A DNA stretch of 29,016 nucleotides from an uncultured Alphaproteobacteria bacterium (GCA_944391365.1 CALXTH010000099.1:1-29016), one strand, 5' to 3'. Positions 5,885 through 23,897 are shown, counted from the stretch's first letter. The notes: generated from the sequence alone by a model not told the origin. Made by a program: numbers and translations.

Positions 5885-7078
5885 TTAATCCTTTGTTATT
5901 TGTTCAATGGTTTGACGCAATGTTTGGGCTGATTTATGGTAAACTTTTTCAGCATGTTTTTCGAGAGCCGAAAGTTTTCCGGCATATTCATTTTCTTTCA
6001 TGGCTATGGCCTGTTTCATCGCCTCACAAAGATTGTTTCCATGATACAAAATGCTGTCTTCAGCTGTAAAACCGTAGATTTTGGCAAAGGTTTCTTCAAG
6101 AAGCATCGGTTTGTTCAGCCCCAAAGACAATTGTTTGGAACCAGTTGTTGTTCCTTTTTTATAAGCTTCCTGTACCGGGCTTTCAGGATCAAGCAGAGCC
6201 AGGAGAAAATCGCTTTCCATACAGCTTTTGTACATATCAGGGAAATTCAGCCGTCCGAGTTTTTTGAGATGATTTTGCAAGTGTGACGGAATTTCCATGC
6301 CGCCGGAGCCGATTACCACAACTTCAAAATCAGAAAGGCCTTCTTTTATCAGGGTTTCAACAGCGTCCAAAAGCTGGGTACAATTTCGGGTGTTCGGTGA
6401 CAAACGGCCGATCATGACAAATCTGGTTTTGGCATTTTTCCGATGTTTGGGAATCGGACCAAAATAAATCGGGCACAACAGGCCGGCTTTGTTTTCGGCC
6501 AGAGGAAATTCATTCAACACAAACAGGCGTTTGTTTAAATAATGATTGTTTTCTTTATACGCCGTCAGATTTTGACAATTATGGTAAATGCACAAAGATC
6601 CGTAAACCGACTGAGGTTCAAATCCGAGATAATCATAATATCTTTCTTTGGTTTCCTGATAATCAAAGGAAGAAATAAACACAAAATCATAATTTTTAAT
6701 GATTTTGTGTTTTAACAGGGACTTTATCCGCCATTTTTGCACGGGGAAAATATCCGGTTTTTCATTATCAGCAAACAAAGCAAAGGGATTTTCTTCATAA
6801 TTTCCGATCCGCATAAGAACATCAACGTGATATCCCAAATCCTGCCAATATTTGACGAATCCCGGCACAACTTCGCCGTGATAGTTGTTCGGCTCAACGA
6901 CCAAAACACTTTTCTTTTTGACTTTATGTTGCAAAAAATCAACATAAAAATGGTTATATTTTTTATAGTTGTTCCATATTTTTCCACAGTCCAATTCCTT
7001 AAGGGAAGCGATGGCTTTTTTGCGCAGTCTTTTAACCGGAATCCAGCAGCACAAGGCTTGGGCGAGATGTTTTTTCAT
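5885..7078 (-). CDS. Putative GT-B fold glycosyltransferase (divergent GT4-like)
   Basis: C-terminal half RFVMIGRL...FEVVVIGSG...LGRLNFPDMYKSCMESDF...LGLNKPMLL resembles a GT-B nucleotide-binding domain; lies next to GT8 and the acyltransferase. The usual Ex7E motif is not evident. Confidence 0.5.
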   Translation of the reverse strand: MKKHLAQALCCWIPVKRLRKKAIASLKELDCGKIWNNYKKYNHFYVDFLQHKVKKKSVLVVEPNNYHGEVVPGFVKYWQDLGYHVDVLMRIGNYEENPFALFADNEKPDIFPVQKWRIKSLLKHKIIKNYDFVFISSFDYQETKERYYDYLGFEPQSVYGSLCIYHNCQNLTAYKENNHYLNKRLFVLNEFPLAENKAGLLCPIYFGPIPKHRKNAKTRFVMIGRLSPNTRNCTQLLDAVETLIKEGLSDFEVVVIGSGGMEIPSHLQNHLKKLGRLNFPDMYKSCMESDFLLALLDPESPVQEAYKKGTTTGSKQLSLGLNKPMLLEETFAKIYGFTAEDSILYHGNNLCEAMKQAIAMKENEYAGKLSALEKHAEKVYHKSAQTLRQTIEQITKD

Positions 7079-7170
7079 CGGAAGACCTCTTTAAAATTGT
7101 TGTATTGTTTTTTATTTGTATCAAATAAAAAGCTTAAGGTCAACCAACTAAACAAAAAGACGGTATAAGA

Positions 7171-7198
7171 AAAAGACCGCTCATCAAAGCGGCCTTTT
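7171..7198 (-). terminator. Rho-independent terminator after the FTR-like gene
   Basis: Minus strand AAAAGGCCGCT-TTGATG-AGCGGTCTTTT(T): stem with one G-U pair followed by a U-tract, 19 nt after the stop at 7217. Confidence 0.65.
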
Positions 7199-7216
7199 GT
7201 TCTTTGAATATCCTGA

Positions 7217-7447
7217 TTATTTTTTGCTGTAACAATGGCAATGGCAGATACCATCCCGCTCAATGTCGCTGCGGCAAAGCTCGGAGATGCAATAACGTGC
7301 GGCATTGCTGCTGTCACAAGGGCAGCGCTGCCATTCACTTTCGCCAAACATTTTGCTTTTTGCCCGGGCAACTTTTTCAATGTTTTCGGTCGGGATATAA
7401 CCGGCTTCTTTACAGTTGGCCATCATTTTATCTAAAATATCTGTCAT
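7217..7447 (-). CDS. Ferredoxin-thioredoxin reductase catalytic-subunit-like Fe-S protein
   Basis: 76 aa with CPC (42-44), C53-x4-C58 and G-I-CHC-HC-Y (68-73); RBS AAAGGA upstream; 12 nt after the parB stop. Confidence 0.65.
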   Translation of the reverse strand: MTDILDKMMANCKEAGYIPTENIEKVARAKSKMFGESEWQRCPCDSSNAARYCISELCRSDIERDGICHCHCYSKK

Positions 7448-7459
7448 ATTAAATTTCCT

Positions 7460-8479
7460 TTAGTCTATTATTTTCATTGTAAATTTTTCATTGCCGACAG
7501 CGGTCAGGTTTTCTGTTTCAACCGGAGCGGAAAGTCCTTGGAATGTGTTATTATTACGCTTTTGTTCAAGGATGTCAATTATCATGTCAAGTTCGGCAAC
7601 CGAAGCATATTGCAAAACGACTTTTCCACCGCCCTGTTTATTCGGTGAAATGCTGATCCGCAGGCCGAGTGATTTTTTCAAATCTTTTTCAAGATCTGCA
7701 ATATCATCATCTTTTTGCGCTTTTGCTTTTTTGGAAGAGACTGTTCCGGATTTTATTTTATTGACCAGCTCTTCAACCTGACGGACGTTTAAATCTTTTT
7801 TGATAATCAGTTGAGCCAGTTCTTCGGCATTATCCAAACCAACCAAATTTCTGGCATGTCCGGCAGAAAGTTTTCCTTCTTTAATCAGGTTCTGCACACT
7901 TTCGGGCAAGCTCAGAAGTCTTAATGTATTGGCAATATGACTGCGAGATTTTCCAATGATTTGAGACAGAGCCTCCTGTGTATGAGAAAATTCATCAATC
8001 AGACGCTGCAGTCCTTCGGCTTCTTCTATGGCGGAGAGGTTTTCGCGCAGAAGATTTTCAACCAGCGCAACTTCCAGAACCTCTTTATCATTCATTTCTT
8101 TTATAATCACCGGAACTTCGGTCAATCCGGCAAGTTTGGAAGCACGAAGGCGCCTTTCTCCGGCAATCAGTTCATAGCCGTCGGATGTTTTGCGAACCAA
8201 TAGAGGTTGAAGAACGCCCTTTTCCTTGATGGAGGCAGCCAGAGCTTTTAAGGCTTCTTCGTCAAATTCTGTTCGCGGTTGATAGGGACTCGGCACGATA
8301 CTGTTGATATTAACCTTATCAGAGGGAGTTACAGGATGTGCTGTTGAATGAGCCGAAGCATGTGCCGGAACATCTCCTAAAGCATCACTCAGATCCAGGT
8401 CATCATCTCCCAAAAGAGCACCTAATCCGCGGCCAAGGCTTTTGCGTTTACCATGATTATGAGTTTCAATATCGGCCAT
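7460..8479 (-). CDS. parB: Chromosome partitioning CTPase ParB
   Basis: LGRGLGALLG N-terminal motif, PYQPR, GVLQPLLVR, LIAGERRLRA (CTP motif), ALVENLLRENL, HTH GKSRSHIANTLRLL. Start placed at ATG 8479 (GGAGG upstream) rather than 8581. Confidence 0.95.
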   Translation of the reverse strand: MADIETHNHGKRKSLGRGLGALLGDDDLDLSDALGDVPAHASAHSTAHPVTPSDKVNINSIVPSPYQPRTEFDEEALKALAASIKEKGVLQPLLVRKTSDGYELIAGERRLRASKLAGLTEVPVIIKEMNDKEVLEVALVENLLRENLSAIEEAEGLQRLIDEFSHTQEALSQIIGKSRSHIANTLRLLSLPESVQNLIKEGKLSAGHARNLVGLDNAEELAQLIIKKDLNVRQVEELVNKIKSGTVSSKKAKAQKDDDIADLEKDLKKSLGLRISISPNKQGGGKVVLQYASVAELDMIIDILEQKRNNNTFQGLSAPVETENLTAVGNEKFTMKIID

Positions 8480-8505
8480 TTTATCCAACTCCTCCAAAGT
8501 GTTTT

Positions 8506-9285
8506 CTAACATGCGATCAATTCCTTTTCTCTTTTCAGGACTTCTCCGGTCAGACTGATATAGGCCTGAGATCCGGGACATTTGAAGTCATAAAGCAAAA
8601 CGGGTTTGCCATGAGACGGAGCTTCAGAAATGCGGACATTCCGTGGAATTACCGTTTGATAAACTTTTTTACCAAAAAAGCTGCGGACATCATCTTCGAC
8701 CATCTGGCTTAAATTGTTGCGCTTATCGTACATGGTCAGGACAACCCCCTGCAAATCAAGCGCGGGGTTAAATTTCTTTTTAATAATATTGATATTGCGA
8801 ATCAGATCGGTTACACCTTCCAAAGCCAAAAATTCACACTGCAGCGGAACAATTACCGCGTTGGCCGCGACCAAAGCATTAATAGTCACCAGACTCAGTG
8901 ACGGCGGGCAGTCTATTAAAATATAATCATAATTGACGGCATAATTGCTTATTGCTTTCTTCAGGGCGAATTCACGTTCCGGCATATCGACCAATTCGAC
9001 TTCGGCCCCGGCTAAATCTGCCGAAGCGGGAATAATTGAAAAATCAGGAATTTCGGTCCAGACAATCGCTTCTGTCAGTTTACAGGCTCCGACAAGAACC
9101 TCATAAGAAGAAACCATGCGTCCTTTTTTTTCTATTCCCATGGAAGTGGTGGCATTACCTTGCGGGTCAAGATCAATAACCAGAACTTTTTTGCCGGCGG
9201 CAGCCATGGCTGTTGCAACGTTTACGGTTGTCGTTGTTTTTCCGACACCGCCTTTGCGATTGGCTATTGCAATTATTCTAGGCAT
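8506..9285 (-). CDS. parA: Chromosome partitioning ATPase ParA/Soj
   Basis: NRKGGVGKTTT deviant Walker A, DLDPQGNAT, IDCPPSL, PLQCEFLALEG, IPRNVRISEAPSHGKP. Confidence 0.96.
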   Translation of the reverse strand: MPRIIAIANRKGGVGKTTTTVNVATAMAAAGKKVLVIDLDPQGNATTSMGIEKKGRMVSSYEVLVGACKLTEAIVWTEIPDFSIIPASADLAGAEVELVDMPEREFALKKAISNYAVNYDYILIDCPPSLSLVTINALVAANAVIVPLQCEFLALEGVTDLIRNINIIKKKFNPALDLQGVVLTMYDKRNNLSQMVEDDVRSFFGKKVYQTVIPRNVRISEAPSHGKPVLLYDFKCPGSQAYISLTGEVLKREKELIAC

Positions 9286-9911
9286 TATTTTCTCCTTTTC
9301 TCTGATAAACCGGTTATAATTAAAACCATGCCGTCGTCACTGGATTCGCTCGGAACGGCTTTATAATCAAAATTCCAGTGTTGTTCGGCAACAGATAATT
9401 CTTCCTGATATTTTTTTCCTTTTGGAAAAATACATTTTGTTTTTTGTGAACAAAAAGCAGAAGCATATTGAAATAACTTATCAAGGGAACACATAGCCCG
9501 AGATGTGATAACATCGACTTTTTCAACCGGGATATTTTCTATCCTGCTATTGATGACTTCGACATTATGCAGTCCAAGCTGTTTGACAACCGCGTTTAAA
9601 TACAGTGTTTTCTTTTTAATACTTTCTATTAATTTTATTTTTAAATACGGTGTTTTTTCTTGTAGAACAGTAGCCAAGACTAATCCCGGAAACCCGGCTC
9701 CAGAGCCAAAATCATATAACAGTTTGGTATCATCAGGAATAAAATTAAGCAACTGAAGAGAGTCTAAAAAATGGCGATTCCAGGCGTCTTCCAGAGAGGC
9801 TTTGCTTACGAGATTAAACTTTTGCTGCCACTCATGTAAAAGTGCTTCATACGTTTTTAATTTTGAAATTGTTTCACGTGAAACAGAATATTTTTCCATT
9901 ATATTTTTCAT
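9285..9911 (-). CDS. rsmG: 16S rRNA m7G527 methyltransferase RsmG (GidB)
   Basis: WQQKFNLVS, RHFLDS, YDFGSGAGFPG (SAM motif), ITSRA, FPKGK. Start uncertain (ATG 9911 or 9899; the track uses GTG 9935). Confidence 0.93.
   Translation of the reverse strand: MKNIMEKYSVSRETISKLKTYEALLHEWQQKFNLVSKASLEDAWNRHFLDSLQLLNFIPDDTKLLYDFGSGAGFPGLVLATVLQEKTPYLKIKLIESIKKKTLYLNAVVKQLGLHNVEVINSRIENIPVEKVDVITSRAMCSLDKLFQYASAFCSQKTKCIFPKGKKYQEELSVAEQHWNFDYKAVPSESSDDGMVLIITGLSEKRRK
9870..9885. promoter_or_regulatory. parS: parS centromere site (inside rsmG)
   Basis: Perfect 16-bp palindrome TGTTTCACGTGAAACA matching the widely conserved parS consensus; encodes VSRET in RsmG. Confidence 0.92.
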
Positions 9912-10115
9912 GAAAATATTTATATAAATTTTCACGAAAATTTAAAACATATTTTATTGAGTTATGAACACCTAAAAAACATTATTTTTGAAATATTTTA
10001 AAATCAATGCGTTAAACAATGTTTCTCTATTCTAAATCAGAAGATTTTACAGACTCGATATTTTTTATCCCGTTTGCAGAAAGACAGCTGCTAAATATTT
10101 ATATGAAAAAAAGAT

Positions 10116-10739
10116 CTATGCAGAAATTCTTAAAATTTTATAGATATCGTTCTGGCATTTTTCATCAAAAAAAGTTTTAAGATCATAAAGCTGTGCTTTA
10201 ATATGTTCTTGAGATTCGGGCGTTGTTCTATATCGTTTGGCGATATCGGCCAGGCGCTCTTCAAAAGAACAAATCCGTCCCCGGTCATTTAACATATCAA
10301 CCATAGCTATGAGTTTGTCATAATCATTATATTCAAAATTTTTCATAATCTCCCGGCTTTCGGAAAGATAATCTTTATAATGAGGATAATCTTCATCTTT
10401 AAAATCCGGGGTATAAAAACTATGAGTCAGACAGACCTGGGCAATTTCATCATATCCCAGAGACTGCATATATTTATAGCCGACAATACCATGGAAAATA
10501 TGTTCGTTCCATTCATCGATAATTCTTCCGCAGTCATGTAGAAGCCCCATGACATAGGCTTTCCGCCATTCAAGGTATTTTGTTTTTTTGGCGATGACTT
10601 CGCCGATTTTGGCTGAAAGACGACTATGAGCCCGAAAAGATGTCTCCATATCTCCAGTAAAGGGATATTGGGTTGAGTTGCGTATATAAACAACTCTTTC
10701 AAAAAGCTCTTCGGCTTCTGCCGGCGTGGGACAAGTCAT
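10116..10739 (-). CDS. HD-domain metal-dependent phosphohydrolase (copy 1)
   Basis: RAHS...GLLHDCGR...FHG...CLTHSF...YDKLIAMVD. ATG 10739 with GAGGTG RBS preferred over GTG 10748. Confidence 0.82.
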   Translation of the reverse strand: MTCPTPAEAEELFERVVYIRNSTQYPFTGDMETSFRAHSRLSAKIGEVIAKKTKYLEWRKAYVMGLLHDCGRIIDEWNEHIFHGIVGYKYMQSLGYDEIAQVCLTHSFYTPDFKDEDYPHYKDYLSESREIMKNFEYNDYDKLIAMVDMLNDRGRICSFEERLADIAKRYRTTPESQEHIKAQLYDLKTFFDEKCQNDIYKILRISA

Positions 10740-10774
10740 CACTAACACCTCATAAAAAAGTTTAAATACACTGT

Positions 10775-11392
10775 TTATTTTATTTCTAAAAGTTCATAAA
10801 CATCTGTTCCGCATTTGCGGCTGAAATATTCTTTGAGTTTTATGGCATTATGATATGAATTTTCCAAAACATTCCAGTTCAAGTCATATCTTTTTTGAAT
10901 GCCAGCAAAGCGTTTTTCGATGGACACAACAGCTGTTCCTTCAAAAAACATATCACACAGCTGGACAATTTTATCATAATCATCAAAGATCATTTCCTGC
11001 ATTTGTTTTTTTGCCCACACTAAACCATCGTACGGATAAGAAGTAAAATGAGAAAAATCAAAATCCGGAGCGTAGAATGTATGCGTCAAACAAATTCTTG
11101 CTATTTGAGGATAGCCAAGTTCCGTTAATTTTTCGTAACCAATTTGCCCATGAAAAAAATATTTTTGATTTTTAAGAAAACATTTTCCATAGTCATGCAG
11201 TAAACCGGAAACATAGGTTCGATCAGAATCTAAATCTGTTGTCAGGACAGCTATTTTCTGACAGCAAGCGGCTATCCCTTTGGTATGAAAAATATATTCT
11301 TTACAGGCCTGTTCAGTCCAGAGGCTACGAGCGTTATCCAGCCCTTTTTGCCAGATTTTTTCAGCCTTTTGTTTTGTCAGATATTGATTCAT
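10775..11392 (-). CDS. HD-domain metal-dependent phosphohydrolase (copy 2)
   Basis: IFHT...GLLHDYGK...FHGQIGY...CLTHTF...YDKIVQLCD; visibly paralogous to 10116-10739. Confidence 0.82.
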   Translation of the reverse strand: MNQYLTKQKAEKIWQKGLDNARSLWTEQACKEYIFHTKGIAACCQKIAVLTTDLDSDRTYVSGLLHDYGKCFLKNQKYFFHGQIGYEKLTELGYPQIARICLTHTFYAPDFDFSHFTSYPYDGLVWAKKQMQEMIFDDYDKIVQLCDMFFEGTAVVSIEKRFAGIQKRYDLNWNVLENSYHNAIKLKEYFSRKCGTDVYELLEIK

Positions 11393-11424
11393 TTCGACTT
11401 GCGCAAAGTTTAAATACAGTGTTA

Positions 11425-13275
11425 CTATCTTTTAATATATCCAAGAACAGCTGTAATTGCTGCCGGGGTTACTCCAGGAATGCGAGAGGCTTCTCCGATG
11501 GTCGACGGACGGACTTTGGAAAGTTTTTGAACCATTTCCCGAGAGAGTCCGCCGATTTGTTCATAATTGATATCGTCATGAATTTTTAGTTGCTCGTCTT
11601 TTTTAAATACTTCTATATCAGCTTCCTGTCTTTTTATATATCCCGCATAACGAGCTTCAATTTCTATTTGATCATAGATATCATTTGGAATATAAGCCAG
11701 TTCAGGCCATAGTGTATTAATTGTTTCACGTGAAACAGTATCATAAGACATCAGATTATAAGCCGTCCTTCGTGTTCCGTCCTGTTTGACTTTTATATTT
11801 AATTTGTTTAGATCGGCATTCCTGGCGGTTAGTTTTTCAACCAAAGACCGACAAGTATTCAGTTGTTCTTTTTTCGCTTTAAATACAGTGTATCGTTTAT
11901 CTCCGACAAGGCCTATTTCATGACCTTTTTCTGTCAGACGAAGGTCTGCATTGTCAGCCCGGAGCAAAAGGCGATATTCAGAACGGGAGGTAAACATCCG
12001 ATAGGGTTCATCAACACCTTTGGTTATGAGATCATCTATCATAACCCCTATATAACCTTCACTGCGGTCAATTGTGAATTTTCTTCCGTCATTCAGAGCT
12101 GTAAGAGCAGCATTTGTTCCGGCAATCAGTCCCTGTGCAGCGGCTTCTTCATAACCGGTTGTTCCATTAATTTGTCCGGCTAAGAAAAGGCCCGGAACTT
12201 TTTTGACTTCGAGGCGGTTATTTAATTCCTGCGGATCAACAAAATCATATTCAATGGCATAAGCATAACGCAGAATTTCAACGTTTTCCAGTCCGTCCAT
12301 TGTATGAATAAAGGCTTCCTGTACATCTGCAGGAAGAGAAGTTGAAATACCATTCGGATAAACGACATCAGTTTTATACCCCTCAGGTTCAAGAAAAATC
12401 TGGTGACTATCGCGGTCCGGAAATTTGACCAGTTTGTCTTCAATACTCGGGCAATACCGGGGACCTATCCCTTTTATCAAGCCAGAGAAGAGGGCGCATT
12501 TTTCAAAATTATCCCGAATAATTTTATGTGTTTGTTCATTTGTTCTGGAAATAGCACACTGAATTTGTTTTTGAGGCAGATTTTCGGTTAAAAAAGAAAA
12601 AGGAATGGGATGGATGTCACCGTCTTGTTTCGGAAGTTTATCCCAATTAATGGTTTTACCATTTAAACGGGCAGGGGTTCCGGTTTTCAAACGTCCCAAA
12701 TTCAAGCCGAAATGTTTTAAATACGGTGTTATACCTGTACAACTGACATCATTGACCCGACCGCCAATTGTTGTCTGATGACCGGTAAACATAACACCAT
12801 TTAAAAAAGTCCCGGAAGTCAGAATGACAGCCCGAGCATGAATCTCCGTATTATCGGCTAAAATAACGCCGGCAATTTTATCTTTTTCAGCCAGAAGACC
12901 TTCAACGGCGGCTTCAATAATTGTCAAATTTTTTTGTTTTTGTAAAGCGTCAAGCATATATTTTTTGTAAAGTTCACGGTCAGCCTGGGCTCTGGGACCC
13001 CGGACAGCCGGTCCTTTAGAAGCATTAAGCATGCGGAACTGAATGCCGGCTTTATCAATGACTCGTGCCATCAATCCATCAAGAGCATCAATTTCACGGA
13101 CAAGATGTCCTTTTCCCAAACCACCGATAGCCGGGTTGCACGACATTTCGCCAATTGTTGCAATTTTATGTGTAATCAAGGCGGTTTTGGCACCCAAGCG
13201 CGCTGCTGCCGCACAAGCTTCACATCCGGCATGGCCTCCACCAATAACAATAACATCAAAATCTGTTTTATTCAT
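11425..13275 (-). CDS. mnmG: tRNA uridine-5-carboxymethylaminomethyl modification enzyme MnmG (GidA)
   Basis: [76 protein letters not shown]. Confidence 0.98.
11722..11737. promoter_or_regulatory. parS: parS centromere site (inside mnmG)
   Basis: Second perfect TGTTTCACGTGAAACA palindrome; encodes VSRET in the MnmG C-terminal region. Confidence 0.92.
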
Positions 13276-13398
13276 TTTTTGTGCCTAAATTTAATTTTTG
13301 TAAAGGTTTACAACAGCTTATTTCTTTTGGCAAGAGATTAATGTATCTCAAACTGTTTTTTTGAAGACAAGAAGAGAGAAATAAGTTTAAATACAGTG

Positions 13399-14742
13399 TT
13401 ATTTACCAATACAAAAGCTACCAAAAATTTTATCAAGAATTTCATCAACTTCTATACGCCCGGTAATTTTGCCAATTTCACGGGCAGCGAGGCGGATATC
13501 TTCAGCGGAAAGTTCAATTTCTTTATCCAAGTTGAAAAGCCGAAGAGAAGAAAGTGCATTTGACAAAGCTTCCCGATAACGTGTCCGGGTAATCAGCAAA
13601 TTAGAATTCACCGTAAACTTATCCTGAATAATTTGTCCTATAGCGTCAAGCAAAACTTCTATTCCCTGCTGATGTTTTGCTGAAATGACTATATTGCCAT
13701 TGGCCGCCAAAATTGAACATTGTTCAGAACTTAAAGTATCACATTTGTTTGCAATATATAAAATTTTGTTTTTAAATGTTTTTTTTATATTTTCAAATAC
13801 TTGAACACTGTCTTGCGATGCATCAAACAAACAAAGCAGCAAATCAGCCGAATTGATCTTTTGATAAGCAATTTCAACACCTTGTTTCTCAATGGCCTCT
13901 TCAGTTTCCCGGATACCGGCCGTATCGGTTACGATAACCGGATAACCGTTAAGGTCAAGGTGAATATCAACAGCGTCTCTTGTTGTTCCGGCTATATCGG
14001 AAACGATAACGACGTCACGTTTGGCTATTGCATTTAATAAACTTGATTTGCCGGCATTTGGTTTGCCGACAATAACAACTCTGAAGCCTTCTCTCAGCCT
14101 TTCACCAATATTATCAGCAGACAGATGTTTTTCTATGCTTTCGCGCAGTTTAAATACAGTGTTATTTATGTTATCTACAACATTTTCAGGAATTTCTTCA
14201 TCGGGAAAATCAATATAAGCCTCAAGATGAGCCAGCAGGGTTACCAGTTGTTCTCGCCAAGTTTCATATAAATTTTTGAGGTTTCCTTCCATTTGGCGCA
14301 ATGCATATTTTCGTTGAGCCTCGGTTTCAGCATCTATTAAATCAGCCATTCCCTCAGCTTCGGTCAAATCCATTTTGTTATTATAAAATGCTCTTTTTGA
14401 AAATTCTCCGGGTTCAGCCATACGAAAATCGGGAATCCGGCTCAAATTATCAAGGACAGTGGAAATAACCGCCCGTGATCCGTGGGTATGCAATTCAACA
14501 ATATCTTCTCCGGTGAATGAGTTTGGTGCCTTAAAATACAGCAAAAGACATTTATCCAAGGTTTGTTTTCCGGAAATGTCTTTTAAATCAACAAAATAAG
14601 CATAACGTGTTTTGAATTTTGTTTTTATCAAAGATGTCATCCGGCGAACAACTTCCAAAGCGTTTATTCCGGAAATGCGGATAACAGCAACTCCTGATTT
14701 TCCCAAAACAGTCGAAAGTGCATAAATTGTTTTATTATCCAT
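13399..14742 (-). CDS. mnmE: tRNA modification GTPase MnmE (TrmE)
   Basis: TIYALST...GVAVIRISG, FTGEDIVELHTHG, GKPNAGKSSLLN, GTTRD, DTAGIR, FGSFCIGK C-terminus. ATG 14742 has an AAAGGA RBS. Confidence 0.98.
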   Translation of the reverse strand: MDNKTIYALSTVLGKSGVAVIRISGINALEVVRRMTSLIKTKFKTRYAYFVDLKDISGKQTLDKCLLLYFKAPNSFTGEDIVELHTHGSRAVISTVLDNLSRIPDFRMAEPGEFSKRAFYNNKMDLTEAEGMADLIDAETEAQRKYALRQMEGNLKNLYETWREQLVTLLAHLEAYIDFPDEEIPENVVDNINNTVFKLRESIEKHLSADNIGERLREGFRVVIVGKPNAGKSSLLNAIAKRDVVIVSDIAGTTRDAVDIHLDLNGYPVIVTDTAGIRETEEAIEKQGVEIAYQKINSADLLLCLFDASQDSVQVFENIKKTFKNKILYIANKCDTLSSEQCSILAANGNIVISAKHQQGIEVLLDAIGQIIQDKFTVNSNLLITRTRYREALSNALSSLRLFNLDKEIELSAEDIRLAAREIGKITGRIEVDEILDKIFGSFCIGK

Positions 14743-14935
14743 CAGTTGATCCTTTCTTTTTACTGATTTAGATATATTAAAGTTCTGAATTTTATGCAAG
14801 TCTTTAAAAAGGCGTTTTTTTGGACTCTACAGCGTTTGTTTAAGCAAAGTTAACCAAAACATCATAGAATGTTTGAAATTGCTTTGTATGGGCTTTATAC
14901 GGACTCATTATTTTTTCTATCTGAGGTTGCTTTAA

Positions 14936-15689: not shown

Positions 15690-16325
15690 ATGATGGATAC
15701 AAAAAAAATCGCGTCTTTTTATAAAAATGGCGCACAGATTCTGGCTGATGCCCGTGAACTTTGCAGTCGTTTTACGGAACAAGAAAAGAGCAGTCTTTAT
15801 TTTTGCAACTGTCAGCATATTTATGAAGCCGGCAGAGTTATAACCGAAGAAGCTCATGAAATTTTCAGAAGAAGTTTTCCGCCAAGTTTTTCTTCAGTTA
15901 TCAATGATCAGAATTTTGATATTGCCAGTTTTTATCAGTTGATTGAGCAATATCCGGAAATTCTGGCTGGTTGTGAAGATGCCTTTTTTTCTTTTGTACA
16001 ACAACATGTTGAAACAAATATGCAGGGATTTCATCAAAAGCTGATGTTCAACTGGAGTTGGAATGCCGTCTACGGTGTTTTGAGCAGTGAATATATCAAA
16101 CATTTTGTGGCTGAGAATAAGCCGGTTTCATTTGAAAAAATGGTTTTATCTTTGGCCCGGTATATGGATCCGGTACAGGCTCTTGGTCAGGAAAGAAGTT
16201 TTTTGTTTTTTTCAGCCGCAGCCAAATTAGATTATGTTCAATTTAAAGAGCGGCTTGTTTGTAATCTGAGAAAAAATCAGGCATTTGAACCTTGGATAAA
16301 AAAGGTTTTGGATGAATTACAGTGA
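15690..16325 (+). CDS. Hypothetical protein (no family recognised)
   Basis: 211-aa ORF with its own consensus promoter and a downstream terminator; no motif recognised. Confidence 0.7.
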   Translation: MMDTKKIASFYKNGAQILADARELCSRFTEQEKSSLYFCNCQHIYEAGRVITEEAHEIFRRSFPPSFSSVINDQNFDIASFYQLIEQYPEILAGCEDAFFSFVQQHVETNMQGFHQKLMFNWSWNAVYGVLSSEYIKHFVAENKPVSFEKMVLSLARYMDPVQALGQERSFLFFSAAAKLDYVQFKERLVCNLRKNQAFEPWIKKVLDELQ

Positions 16326-16368: not shown

Positions 16369-17622
16369 TTAACTGTTCATATTGTTGAAAAAATCGTGAT
16401 TGTTTTTGGATATTTTGAGTTTATCGAGCAAAAATTCCATGCCGTCGGTCATTCCCATCTGCATCAGAACACGGCGCAGAACCCACATTTTTGATAAAGT
16501 CTGACGATCCACCAGAAGTTCTTCTTTACGGGTGCCGGAACGTGTTATGTCAATGGTTGGGAATAAGCGTTTGTCAACCAGTTTTCTATCCAGGATAATT
16601 TCAGAATTTCCGGTCCCTTTAAATTCTTCAAAAATAACTTCATCCATGCGGGAACCGGTATCTATCAGCGCGGTTGCAATAATTGTCAGCGAACCACCTT
16701 CCTCAACATTACGGGCAGCTCCCAGCAATCTTTTCGGACGTTGAAGAGCATTGGCATCAACACCGCCGGTCAAAACCTTTCCGGAAGAAGGAATCACCGC
16801 ATTATACGCTCGTCCCAAACGGGTAATGGAATCAAGCAAAATTACAACGTCTTTTTTGGTTTCCACCAAACGTTTAGCCTTTTCGACCACCATTTCAGCA
16901 ACCTGAACATGGCGAGCTGCCGGTTCATCAAATGTTGAGGAAATAACCTCTCCTTTAACAGAACGGGTCATGTCGGTTACTTCTTCAGGGCGCTCGTCAA
17001 TCAGCAAAACCATCAGGTAAACTTCCGGGTGATTGGCGGCAATTGCATGAGCAATATTTTGCAGCATAACGGTTTTTCCCGTACGGGGCGGGGCAACAAT
17101 CAGACCGCGTTGTCCTTTTCCCTGAGGTGCCACCAAATCAATTACGCGGGTTGTATAGTCTTTTTCACCGCAGATAATATCAAAATTGAGTTTTTCCGTC
17201 GGATAGAGCGGGGTCAGATTATCAAAATTGACACGAAGTTTTGATTTTTCCGGGTCTTCAAAGTTTATTTTATTTATTTTAGTCAAAGCAAAGTAGCGCT
17301 CATTTTCTTTCGGAGCGCGAATTTCACCTTCAACAGTGTCTCCGGTACGCAGACCGTATTTTTTTACCTGAGCCGGTGAGACATAAATATCATCGGGACT
17401 GGCCAGATAGTTGGATTCCGTAGAACGCAGAAAACCGAAACCATCAGGCAGGACTTCTATTGTTCCGTCACCGTAAATAATTTCATCATCGGAGGCAACT
17501 TTTTTCAGAATTGCAAAAATAAGATCCTGAACCCGCATTGAAGAAGCATCTTCAATGCTCAGTTCTTCCGCCTGAGTCAGAAGCTCTTTCGGGGACTTTT
17601 GCTTAAGCTCTTGTAGATACAT
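16369..17622 (-). CDS. rho: Transcription termination factor Rho
   Basis: [70 protein letters not shown]. Confidence 0.98.
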
Positions 17623-18150
17623 TAATAAAACCTTGTAAATTTGTTGATTATTTTAATTGAGAATTTGAAATTTTATTTGGGCAATTGAAGAAAGAGCCCG
17701 TTGTTGAGTTGTTTATATGATTTAAATCGGAAAAAGTCAATTGTTTGTTTTAGAGAAAGGTTATGCACAGACTGATTTGCCCAATCATTTAAATTTTAAA
17801 ATTTATGTAGTTATTTGTGTATCCCTGTGAGTTGTGTGGATAAGTTTTGGAGCGGGGGAACAAAGGCTTGTTAATATTTTTTTAACGAATCGATGTCTAA
17901 ATTTAAAGAAATTAACAAAAAGTAAATTTTTCTGTCGAGTCAGCCCCTGTAAAGTCCTAAAATCAGAGACTCCAGAAAAAAAATTTTTAAAGCGGAAAAC
18001 GAATCTGAGCAAGGGTTGTGGGTAAGTTTGTAGAATAAATTTTACATTGTGTGGATTAATTTGTATAAATGTCTAAAAAGGAGGGGTTATACACAGTAAA
18101 TAGTCTTTTTGTGTATAAGTCGGTTAACTCTTTGTTTCTAGGATAAATTT
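17623..18150. other. oriC: Putative chromosomal replication origin (oriC)
   Basis: Consensus TTWTNCACA DnaA boxes at 17761-17769 (+), 17835-17843 (-, perfect TTATCCACA), 18087-18095 (+), 18110-18118 (-); one-mismatch boxes at 18017, 18050, 18060; AT-rich tracts near 17787-17812 and 17870-17930; rho/coaE/dnaQ/parAB context. Minus-strand genes to the right stay G-rich on the + strand in hand-counted lines (19 G/5 C at 19981-20040). Confidence 0.85.
17712..17740 (-). promoter_or_regulatory. Sigma70-type promoter for rho
   Basis: Minus strand TTGACT, 17 nt, TATAAA, about 90 nt upstream of the rho ATG. Confidence 0.6.
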
Positions 18151-22980: not shown

Positions 22981-23008
22981 AAAAGAGGAGCTGGTCAGCT
23001 CCTCTTTT
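22981..23008. terminator. Bidirectional intrinsic terminator between secB and xerD
   Basis: AAAAGAGGAGCTG-GT-CAGCTCCTCTTTT perfect inverted repeat; the xerD stop codon (22995-22997) lies inside it. Confidence 0.8.
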
Positions 23009-23897
23009 GATTGTTTAACGGATGGTTTTTTAAAACGGTGTTGATGAGTTTATCGTTGATGATGTGGGTGTAGATTTCCGTTGTGGCGATGCTGGAATGT
23101 CCCAGCATTTGCTGGACGCTTCTCAGGTCGGCACCGTTGTTCAGCAGATGGGTGGCAAAAGAGTGACGCAGGGTGTGCGGCGATATTTTTGCCGGTGAAA
23201 TTCCACAACGGGCAGCGAGCTCCTTGAGGTCTTTATAGAAGGCGTCGCGGGTCAGGTGTCCGGATGAGGATCGAGAGGGGAATAGCCATTGTGAGCGGCG
23301 GCCGTTTTTGAGAAATCTGTCCCGGAGTTCAATGTATTTTGAAATATTATTTATTGTATTTGCAGCAATGGGAATCAGGCGTTCTTTGCTGCCTTTGCCG
23401 CGGATGAGAATCTGTTTTTTATCAGCATTTATGCAGTTTTCGGGAAGGGATATGAGCTCGGAAACGCGGAGGCCGCAGGCGTACATCAGTTCAGTCATGA
23501 CGGCCATGCGCTGCCAACGGATGTCGTTTGTGTTCTGAGCTGTGGAGATCAGTTTTTTTATTTCTTCGACGGTGAGGTATTTGGGCAGCGGTTTGGTTTG
23601 TTTCGGCGCAGAAAGGTTGTCTGTCGGCAGTGTTTTGATTTCTTTTTCCGTATAAAGGAATTTGAAATATTCCCGCAGGGTGGAGAGTTTTCTGGCGATG
23701 GTTTTCGGAGCGAAGTTTTGCAATGAGCCGATGAAGGTTGAAATATCTTCCGGTGTGATTGAAGCGGGCGGACGGTTGCCAGTGTATGACCAGAACTGTT
23801 CAAGGTCGCGGCGGTAGGCCTCAAGGGTGTTTTGTGCCGCGCCCCGTTCAGCCGACATCATTTCCAGAAAGTTTTCAATTAATGTGTCGGCCGACAT
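22995..23897 (-). CDS. xerD: Tyrosine recombinase XerD
   Basis: ERGAAQNTLEAYRRDL, LMYACGLRVSEL, RGKGSKERLIP, SPHTLRHSFATHLLNNGADLRSVQQMLGHSSIATTEIYTH; position beside aroK is the usual alphaproteobacterial xerD locus. Confidence 0.88.
   Translation of the reverse strand: MSADTLIENFLEMMSAERGAAQNTLEAYRRDLEQFWSYTGNRPPASITPEDISTFIGSLQNFAPKTIARKLSTLREYFKFLYTEKEIKTLPTDNLSAPKQTKPLPKYLTVEEIKKLISTAQNTNDIRWQRMAVMTELMYACGLRVSELISLPENCINADKKQILIRGKGSKERLIPIAANTINNISKYIELRDRFLKNGRRSQWLFPSRSSSGHLTRDAFYKDLKELAARCGISPAKISPHTLRHSFATHLLNNGADLRSVQQMLGHSSIATTEIYTHIINDKLINTVLKNHPLNNQKRS

Follow-up and report, generated by a model that had tools for sequence, protein, structure and literature searches.

A polar array of a non-palindromic DNA word, interleaved with parS near the probable replication origin in a family of uncultured Alphaproteobacteria: putative binding sites for a factor of the origin domain

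The subject of the present study is a short, asymmetric DNA word that recurs among the centromere sites (parS) of an uncultured alphaproteobacterium. The stretch analysed, hereafter the window, is 29,016 nucleotides long (GCA_944391365.1 CALXTH010000099.1:1-29016) and carries eight copies of the word, all on one strand and interleaved with two perfect parS sites beside the probable replication origin (oriC). Judged from sequence comparisons within the family, the array is, with modest confidence, best read as a polar set of binding sites for a putative DNA-binding factor of the origin domain.

The relaxed consensus of the word is TTTAAATAC-NNN-GT(T), about 15 letters or 14-17 bp, and asymmetric; in a logo over relatives it reads (G)TTTAAATAC-N3-GT(T)(t/a)(t), with three variable middle positions and no symmetry, and it is not palindromic. 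A search with TTTAAATACRGTGT at up to one mismatch gave eight matches in the window, all on the + strand, which reproduces every copy named in an earlier note made from the window alone; the three exact 18-mers (AGTTTAAATACAGTGTTA at 11407, 13384 and 14147), the reading frames and the positions relative to stop codons given there also agree with the sequence. The word is far more frequent than composition predicts, as dinucleotide-preserving shuffles of the window led to an expectation of 0.04 copies and none of 100 shuffles reached eight. The remaining ~24 kb were rightly described as free of copies: the relaxed pattern TTTAAATACNNNGT yielded no extra one in the window on either strand. Most copies lie 0.5-1 kb apart and five are within genes:

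9595..9608, + strand: word copy 1, TTTAAATACAGTGT, inside rsmG, where the minus strand reads T-L-Y-L-N
9640..9653, + strand: word copy 2, TTTAAATACGGTGT, inside rsmG, read T-P-Y-L-K
10761..10774, + strand: word copy 3, TTTAAATACACTGT, in the interval between the HD2 stop and the HD1 start, with one mismatch and fitting the relaxed consensus
11409..11422, + strand: word copy 4, within the 18-mer AGTTTAAATACAGTGTTA, in the interval between the mnmG stop and the HD2 start
11878..11891, + strand: word copy 5, inside mnmG, read Y-T-V-F-K, its synonymous positions frozen in array-bearing genomes
12716..12729, + strand: word copy 6, inside mnmG, read T-P-Y-L-K
13386..13399, + strand: word copy 7, within the 18-mer, abutting the mnmE stop codon
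14149..14162, + strand: word copy 8, within the 18-mer, inside mnmE, read N-T-V-F-K

Copies 1 and 2 form a pair 45 bp apart in rsmG, a spacing that is kept in relatives.

Across the whole 1.50-Mb assembly of the window organism (G000; 195 contigs, from chicken-gut metagenomes) nine matches at up to one mismatch were found, namely the eight of the window, contained within 4.6 kb, and one at C49:4606, which overlaps the stop codon at the 3' end of a gene for a CcrM-like methyltransferase and has a second, degenerate copy 34 bp away. With two mismatches allowed, a reversed-pattern control gave equal counts. With nine copies in 1.5 Mb the word is not spread evenly over the genome, and the hundreds to thousands of copies that are the hallmark of DNA uptake sequences and uptake signal sequences are not present. 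Exact copies occur in all 14 genomes of the window's genus, in nine of ten other genera and in 23 of 24 family genomes, nearly all within one 5-8 kb stretch and on one strand; of 16 outgroup genomes from other families, 14 are without the exact word and two have a single match each. In its relaxed form the word is present in 118 of 119 family genomes sampled, typically with 6-19 copies, nearly all one-stranded (reversed-word control: mostly 0-5 per strand per genome), and the one genome sampled from the sister family has a single relaxed copy. In 20 fetched loci of relatives the array was met in the same mnmE-mnmG-rsmG block and in the same places in rsmG, mnmG and mnmE, so that the absence from this region in close relatives, against which the earlier note had set its claim, was not observed. 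According to public record labels, the array family consists of uncultured gut and rumen Alphaproteobacteria. On large contigs of relatives word clusters are accompanied by a few outposts, and genus g11 has about half of its copies 16-100 kb away from parS. In one genome of this genus, G122, three copies at C1:12370, 12685 and 13000 recur at exactly 315 bp, some 105 kb away from the main cluster, which suggests a tandemly repeated gene or segment carrying the word. A typical array of the alphaproteobacterial family, 45-bp pair included, was also encountered in locus L089, from a metagenome-assembled genome (MAG) labelled Lactobacillaceae; the label is probably wrong, for the 391-kb contig or for the bin as a whole.

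Selection on the DNA itself is well supported by codon comparisons. In array-bearing genomes the mnmG sites read ATA ACA CCG TAT TTA AA and TAC ACT GTA TTT AAA in an essentially letter-perfect manner, and neighbouring synonymous positions vary freely. Over 21 array-bearing genomes mnmG contains 376 codons with a conserved amino acid, for which the mean major-codon frequency is 0.62 and a single codon is used throughout in 3.5%; the sole runs of at least three invariant codons are P-Y-L of the word and V-S-R-E of parS. By this measure the word is conserved as strictly as parS. In G018, where the word is gone, the same peptide ITPYLK is encoded by ATT ACC CCT TAT CTG AAA, and the proposal in the earlier note that selection acts on the DNA rather than on a protein repeat thus withstood comparison. 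The sites turn over and nevertheless stay clustered: mnmE of G021 and G017 contains in its 5' part a copy without counterpart in the window's genus, and around every variable gene inserted in the block there are additional copies, in many cases two or three at spacings of 21-33 bp. These inserted genes encode ordinary enzymes and the like (HD1, HD2, PHP, an extra HAD, GNAT, alpha/beta hydrolase, methyltransferase, a MurA-like protein and a tRNA-binding domain). Since frozen synonymous positions are combined with a turnover that keeps the clustering, DNA selection and a role in the origin/parS domain are both well supported.

That the copies might be functionless by-products of codon usage, mutation bias, gene conversion or hitch-hiking is strongly disfavoured and in our estimation hardly credible. 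The word is AT-rich, as is its region, and several copies fall in conserved peptides, which would suit such an origin; but the excess over shuffles, two-mismatch counts at control level, the restriction of synonymous freezing to word and parS, the recoding of the same peptide where the array was lost, the existence of non-coding copies and a turnover that keeps polarity all speak against it.

The genes and sites that surround the array are listed here, Pfam having confirmed the gene order on the minus strand:

7460-8581, - strand: parB (Pfam), the single ParB-family gene in most family genomes
8506-9285, - strand: parA (Pfam)
9285-9935, - strand: rsmG (Pfam), array host gene
9870..9885: perfect parS, TGTTTCACGTGAAACA, inside rsmG
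10116-10748, - strand: HD1, an HD-domain gene (Pfam), array host block
10775-11392, - strand: HD2, an HD-domain gene (Pfam), array host block
11425-13275, - strand: mnmG (Pfam), array host gene
11722..11737: perfect parS, inside mnmG, codons V-S-R-E
13399-14799, - strand: mnmE (Pfam), array host gene
beyond mnmE, + strand: HAD hydrolase, then a 211-amino-acid orphan (15690-16325)
16369-17622: rho, after the orphan
17623..18150: probable oriC in the rho/coaE spacer, with DnaA-box-like 9-mers, a CtrA-type box and a GC-skew sign change nearby

A parS search of the window at up to three mismatches matched the two true parS sites only. The rho/coaE spacer contains six DnaA-box-like 9-mers, one of them a perfect TTATCCACA, and one TTAA-N7-TTAA (CtrA-type) box at 17871; a cluster of 3-6 DnaA boxes was present in this spacer in all nine relatives checked. 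Because these boxes are conserved and the GC skew changes sign nearby, oriC very probably lies in the rho/coaE spacer, 3.5-8.5 kb right of the array. The skew itself amounts to -0.03 to -0.09 left of ~15 kb and +0.13 to +0.36 right of it, with most genes on the minus strand on both sides, a pattern that fits C-rich coding strands plus replication skew; the genes right of oriC are mostly oriented head-on to replication.

In the window the polarity of the word, transcription and replication direction all coincide, which is why relatives are needed to separate polarity from the other two. Of 77 loci with at least three copies, 75 are one-stranded, and 391 copies lie on the majority strand as against 2 on the opposite one. 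Both mixed-polarity loci appear to stem from unrelated organisms: one, L017, with three copies, belongs to a MAG labelled Candidatus Gastranaerophilales, and the origin of the other was judged from neighbouring proteins. Tandem copies in genus g11 and at 84 metagenome loci directly follow + strand genes (trkA, genes for an outer-membrane-type secreted protein and for a small secreted protein), with the TAA stop inside TTTAAA, and thus have the opposite sense to the window; some g11 and metagenome copies are located between convergent genes. Where a + strand HAD gene has been inserted (G005, G010, G013), the flanking copies keep their polarity. Word orientation is independent of host-gene transcription.

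These observations also bear on the idea that the word is a transcription or RNA signal of the mnmE...parB transcript, such as a promoter or pause element, a processing site or a small-RNA target. All window copies are sense to one operon, the intergenic ones immediately precede the ribosome-binding site or the start codon of the next gene, and the sense strand, TGTATTTAAA, loosely resembles a -10 element; but the opposite-sense copies of other genera, those between convergent genes and the unchanged polarity around the + strand HAD insert contradict it. Folding energies of the three intergenic copies gave z-scores of +1.4 to +2.0 against shuffles and the mnmE copy one of -0.6; a 111-nt stretch with the rsmG pair was marginally more stable than its shuffles (z = -1.33), so that in four of five word-bearing stretches folding was no better than in shuffles. 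Rfam returned no match in the window, and no sequence complementary to the word was found elsewhere in the 1.5-Mb genome. By these estimates the word is not a structured RNA, and an RNA or transcription signal of any kind is highly improbable.

Relatives likewise allowed polarity to be compared with replication direction. On contig C10 of G124 the block parB...mnmE-HAD-rho occupies 2.4-12 kb, and copies at contig positions 28.6, 29.6 and 43.1 kb, beyond rho and oriC, are on the strand of the cluster; in G087, G056 and G096 copies beyond oriC are likewise on the main-cluster strand. In G002 two same-strand copies are contained in a 383-amino-acid gene 35 kb beyond oriC, one of which is also present in G006 (oriC side unplaced); by eye, this gene is HemW-like. 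Altogether, same-strand copies beyond oriC lie 16-47 kb past it in six genomes of three genera. Orientation therefore seems not to be mirrored about oriC, and polarity appears absolute. Of the strict polarity and directional barrier proposed earlier, the polarity stands, whereas a replication-linked directional barrier is unlikely, because polarity is not mirrored.

Near-perfect co-orientation, extending to outposts 16-100 kb away, could also mean that the word is a direction signal for a DNA-tracking machine (translocase, helicase-nuclease or loop extruder), which it would load, stop or orient on its passage through the origin region, in the way of KOPS for FtsK or CTCF sites for cohesin; to our knowledge, an orientation can be sensed over kilobases by tracking processes alone. 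KOPS (FtsK-orienting polar sequences), SRS (SpoIIIE recognition sequences) and Chi (RecBCD-AddAB) are, like Ter/Tus, asymmetric words whose orientation is the information they convey, but known motor signals have 5-8 bp and occur genome-wide, in hundreds for KOPS, SRS and Chi, mirrored about the ori-dif axis, whereas the word has 14-17 bp and is confined to one origin-proximal domain without mirroring; it was rejected as a word of the KOPS/SRS/Chi type on these grounds. SMC-ScpAB is an unlikely motor. ScpB was not found in 24 family genomes, save for one broken sub-threshold match (the same search was positive for Caulobacter, the control, and for 8 of 16 further families of Alphaproteobacteria), and a search of five family genomes for the SMC hinge gave nothing, a weak negative, as the Caulobacter control was missed as well. 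Larger alphaproteobacterial relatives have ScpB. The array family may thus be one that bears ParABS without SMC-ScpAB condensin, and condensin loading, one of the functions considered in the earlier note, becomes unlikely. A tracking machine would, moreover, still require a recognising protein. Because of the length, two-part shape, copy number, domain restriction and parS-like conservation of the word, a protein site is preferred to a motor signal, which we consider unlikely.

The array has been lost in places. In G018, G083 and G076 the word is missing from both mnmG sites with no replacement word, and the relaxed-word counts of 1, 0 and 2, respectively, are at control level. All three keep parS in mnmG, and G018, whose genome was fetched whole, also keeps parA, parB and the second parS in rsmG. 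The array was thus lost three times while parABS stayed; it is accordingly dispensable, and neither it nor ParABS depends on the other. The two parS sites of G018 (L247:742 and L247:1980) share a central change, TGTTTCACATGAAACA; the other genomes checked keep CACGTG.

An accessory site of ParABS, read by ParB or ParA or shaping the spreading of ParB around parS, would agree with the interleaving of array and parS, with the location in an operon that ends in parA-parB in every genome examined, and with ParB being the sole DNA-binding protein encoded there. It is nonetheless quite improbable, given that the word is non-palindromic and without similarity to parS, that three genomes lost it and kept the mnmG parS, that about half of the g11 copies are so distant from parS, and that ParB, 290-375 amino acids long between genera, has no family-wide extra domain. 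Most array-bearing genomes have one ParB_N gene, that of the canonical ParB; a second ParB-family gene was not found in them, and a Noc-like ParB paralogue was therefore rejected as reader. A second centromere system, as the earlier note had put it, is disfavoured by both this lack of a second ParB-like protein in most genomes and the loss of the array where parABS stays.

Since direct copies, in many cases two or three together, stand on either side of every variable inserted gene, it was also considered that the copies are attachment or crossover sites for gene cassettes, be they att-like, integron-like or used in repeat-mediated recombination. A gene for a XerC/D-type tyrosine recombinase (22995-23897, - strand, adjoining aroK) does lie 5 kb right of oriC, beyond it as seen from the array. 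However, five copies are fixed within essential genes under purifying selection, where recombination would delete essential DNA, no dedicated recombinase adjoins the array, the likeness to XerD arms is loose, and ordinary homologous recombination in conserved flanks can explain the exchange. With no symmetry, no integrase in the array and five conserved copies in essential genes, an integron attC or recombinase att site was rejected, and we regard a role of the copies in cassette exchange in general as very improbable, although recombination as a side-effect is conceivable where copies flank the cassettes.

Other known site classes were compared with the word, and the statement that it matches neither parS, the DnaA box, the CtrA box, KOPS nor the LexA box was confirmed, for KOPS from length and distribution and for the others by pattern comparison; only the arms of dif, also excluded at the time, proved loosely alike. 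The word is asymmetric and parS a 16-bp palindrome, TGTTnCACGTGAAACA; canonical DnaA boxes of the TTATCCACA type and one TTAA-N7-TTAA box are found in the rho/coaE spacer, outside the word. Compared with the alphaproteobacterial LexA box (GTTC-N7-GTTC) it aligns by eye to GTTT-N9-GTTA, with the wrong spacing. To candidate dif sites, and hence XerD arms, the likeness is only loose; these candidates, in G000, G018 and G019, are themselves poorly conserved. Among the matches listed in a full-text literature search for the word, judged by title and abstract, only unrelated fields were represented.

A protein that would read the word was sought among the genes of the family. No universal DNA-binding product other than ParB is encoded in or beside the array, and nine reader candidates were subjected to a presence/absence test, which all of them failed. 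HD1, HD2 and the orphan at 15690-16325, the binders favoured in the earlier note, did not hold up: they are missing from one or another of the array-bearing genomes G011, G017, G019, G020 and G021, and genes inserted in the array were rejected because they encode enzymes. The small Cys-rich gene that follows parB was also set aside as a reader. The array-negative G083 and G076 both have a 139-amino-acid protein encoded near ccrM, G083 has a PopZ-like protein as well, and PolA is missing from G018 alone. Three function-unassigned proteins, shared by G000 and G019 and lacking in G018, are all present in G083, and the one searched for widely, of 207 amino acids, is patchy (34 of 121 genomes). A link to flagella was dismissed because FlhA, missing from G018, G083 and G076, is also missing from the array-bearing G019 and G104. 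Another candidate was a 66-amino-acid orphan ribbon-helix-helix protein, encoded between polA and a PBP1A-like gene, with an invariant C-terminal ER-FF and no toxin partner:

G000 C14:3630-3830, - strand; L157:2876-3073; L025:6151-6348; L069:7091-7288: ribbon-helix-helix gene

In seven loci a word copy is located ~0.6-1.2 kb from this gene, but a search of 121 genomes recovered it in no more than 48, none of them in the array-bearing genera g11, g8, g3 and g6. When G018 (whole) was subtracted from G000, ~270 plausible G000 genes were without a G018 homologue; the intersection with 61% of G019 left 41 with a G019 homologue, and among these no evident DNA-binder was recognised at this coverage of G019. 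A screen for broken genes in G018 gave noise only. The 84 metagenome loci with tandem copies had no DNA-binding neighbour; recurrent neighbours were secreted proteins, among them an outer-membrane-type one, a lipoprotein, TrkA and RuvAB. In viral contigs no tandem word pair occurred, only scattered single 16-mers. A 41-bp tandem repeat of ~8 units in Streptococcus sp. HF-1907 (L086:900-1240), which contains the 16-mer AACACTGTATTTAAAC and adjoins a gene for a DpnII-like endonuclease, was judged a chance match. The earlier suggestion of a binding protein that acts on the ori/parS domain has accordingly fared unequally, in that clustering and DNA selection favour the domain role and no binding protein was found among nine candidates.

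As to how the sites might be occupied, short spacings between copies are informative. Three values dominate, namely 13 bp with 38 cases, 26 bp with 18 and 45 bp with 32, the last being that of the rsmG pair; minor groups occur at 21 and 31-34 bp. Pairs and triplets in tandem at 13 bp are found, and genus g11 shows this period. From the peaks at 13 and 26 bp it follows that units can abut head to tail. At each copy, one unit of a factor that is asymmetric and sequence-specific would dock on the double-stranded DNA, reading the 9-bp block TTTAAATAC and then GT(T), three variable bp further on; such a unit might be a monomer with two heads, or else a dimer placed on an asymmetric site, and in tandem copies units would sit head to tail every 13 bp. 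Some 8-13 units would thereby decorate the 5-7 kb that carry parS, 3.5-8.5 kb from oriC, with a few outposts 16-100 kb away on both sides of oriC. As all copies point one way irrespective of gene direction or replichore, the bound array would give the origin/centromere domain a uniform polarity, and its role might be to organise, anchor or insulate this domain.

Several points weigh against a binding-site array. No reader was found, and no product of the array or its neighbourhood combines DNA binding with universal occurrence; to the nine failed candidates are added the 84 metagenome loci in which tandem copies stand without a DNA-binding neighbour. Simple binding needs no strict co-orientation over tens of kb, and a tracking process may be involved. 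Furthermore, every genome is an uncultured MAG, and the argument from the two sides of oriC rests on an origin placed by DnaA boxes and skew, in genera g8 and g11 also by gene order alone.

Known arrays of protein sites, such as parS, matS, ram and NBS (Noc-binding sites), are similar to the word array in length, copy number and restriction to one domain. With parS/ParB it shares a word of ~16 bp in few to about ten copies, within a few kb beside oriC, in many cases in housekeeping genes and with synonymous positions conserved, the two being interleaved here; but parS is palindromic, without polarity and has its reader encoded alongside, whereas the word is asymmetric and co-oriented. The sites of matS/MatP (Escherichia coli Ter), ram/RacA and NBS/Noc (Bacillus subtilis), SBS (SlmA-binding sites)/SlmA and maoS/MaoP (E. 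coli Ori) have 13-17 bp and lie in one domain each, and in known domain marks of this kind a dedicated protein reads the site and organises or anchors the domain. Of these, matS, ram, NBS and SBS are palindromic and obey no orientation rule, unlike the asymmetric, polar word; maoS is non-palindromic and origin-proximal as the word is, but it is a single site beside its reader gene. The distinction from matS, ram, SBS and maoS is one of site features, ParB/Noc being the reader family that was looked for. Ter sites, read by Tus or by the replication terminator protein RTP, form two opposed groups around the terminus, whereas the word forms one polarity group near the origin; a fork trap of this type was rejected on the arrangement of the sites, with no search made for Tus or RTP.

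Asymmetric direct repeats that abut head to tail are also known from ParR-parC (R1, pSK41), TubR-tubC, omega heptads and Rep iterons, with periods of 7-22 bp compared with the 13 bp of the word in g11. Such plasmid centromeres and iterons are, however, compact (<200 bp), non-coding and beside the gene of their reader; the word copies are spread, many of them intragenic, and no adaptor gene adjoins the array at the loci examined. The XerD-binding XDS half-sites of B. subtilis are non-palindromic, terminus-located and similar to dif arms, which the word is only loosely. Vertebrate CTCF sites, finally, are non-palindromic, act on the chromosome-folding machinery and decide the outcome by their orientation; the likeness is one of analogy only, limited by ScpB and SMC not being found in the array family genomes searched. 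By such comparisons the array would work most like parS/ParB, matS/MatP, ram/RacA, NBS/Noc and maoS/MaoP, but it fails those defining features that were tested.

More specifically, a lineage-specific DNA-binding protein might read the non-palindromic word and build a polarised origin/centromere array, a CTCF-like counterpart in a family apparently without SMC-ScpAB; we put this forward as a tentative and rather doubtful possibility. If it were true, the origin region would acquire from the polarised array an inherent direction, along which it could be anchored, folded or insulated. The well-studied bacterial domain marks known to us (parS, matS, ram, NBS, SBS) are all palindromes without direction, and those words known to have a direction (KOPS, Chi, Ter) are linked to replication. 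A conservation as strict as that of parS over a family of >100 species, confined to the origin and with absolute direction, is a pattern that fits no described system and would imply an undescribed reader and function at the bacterial centromere or origin. The three natural losses and the exact consensus offer handles for finding this reader.

Some minor observations concern the genome without the array and the genes next to it. G018 comprises 1.32 Mb, is rated 99% complete and corresponds to L183-L259. By tblastn it had no match for ddl, murC, murF, glmM, ampG, nagZ and polA, nor for hslV, ispG, ispH, coaE, cold-shock proteins and flagellar genes; rpsG was likewise missed, so that some absences may be assembly gaps. 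G018 may represent a wall-less or strongly reduced lineage. In the window the parB reading frame overlaps parA by 75 nt and 33 codons precede the usual N-terminal motif of ParB, KRKSLGRGLGALL, and the true start is probably Met34. A 101-amino-acid open reading frame at 7075-7380 is probably spurious. Directly after parB, at 7217-7447 on the - strand, a gene for a Cys-rich protein of 76 amino acids (CPC...CHC) was noticed, which is conserved in relatives and without a Pfam match; by eye it resembles the catalytic subunit of ferredoxin-thioredoxin reductase.

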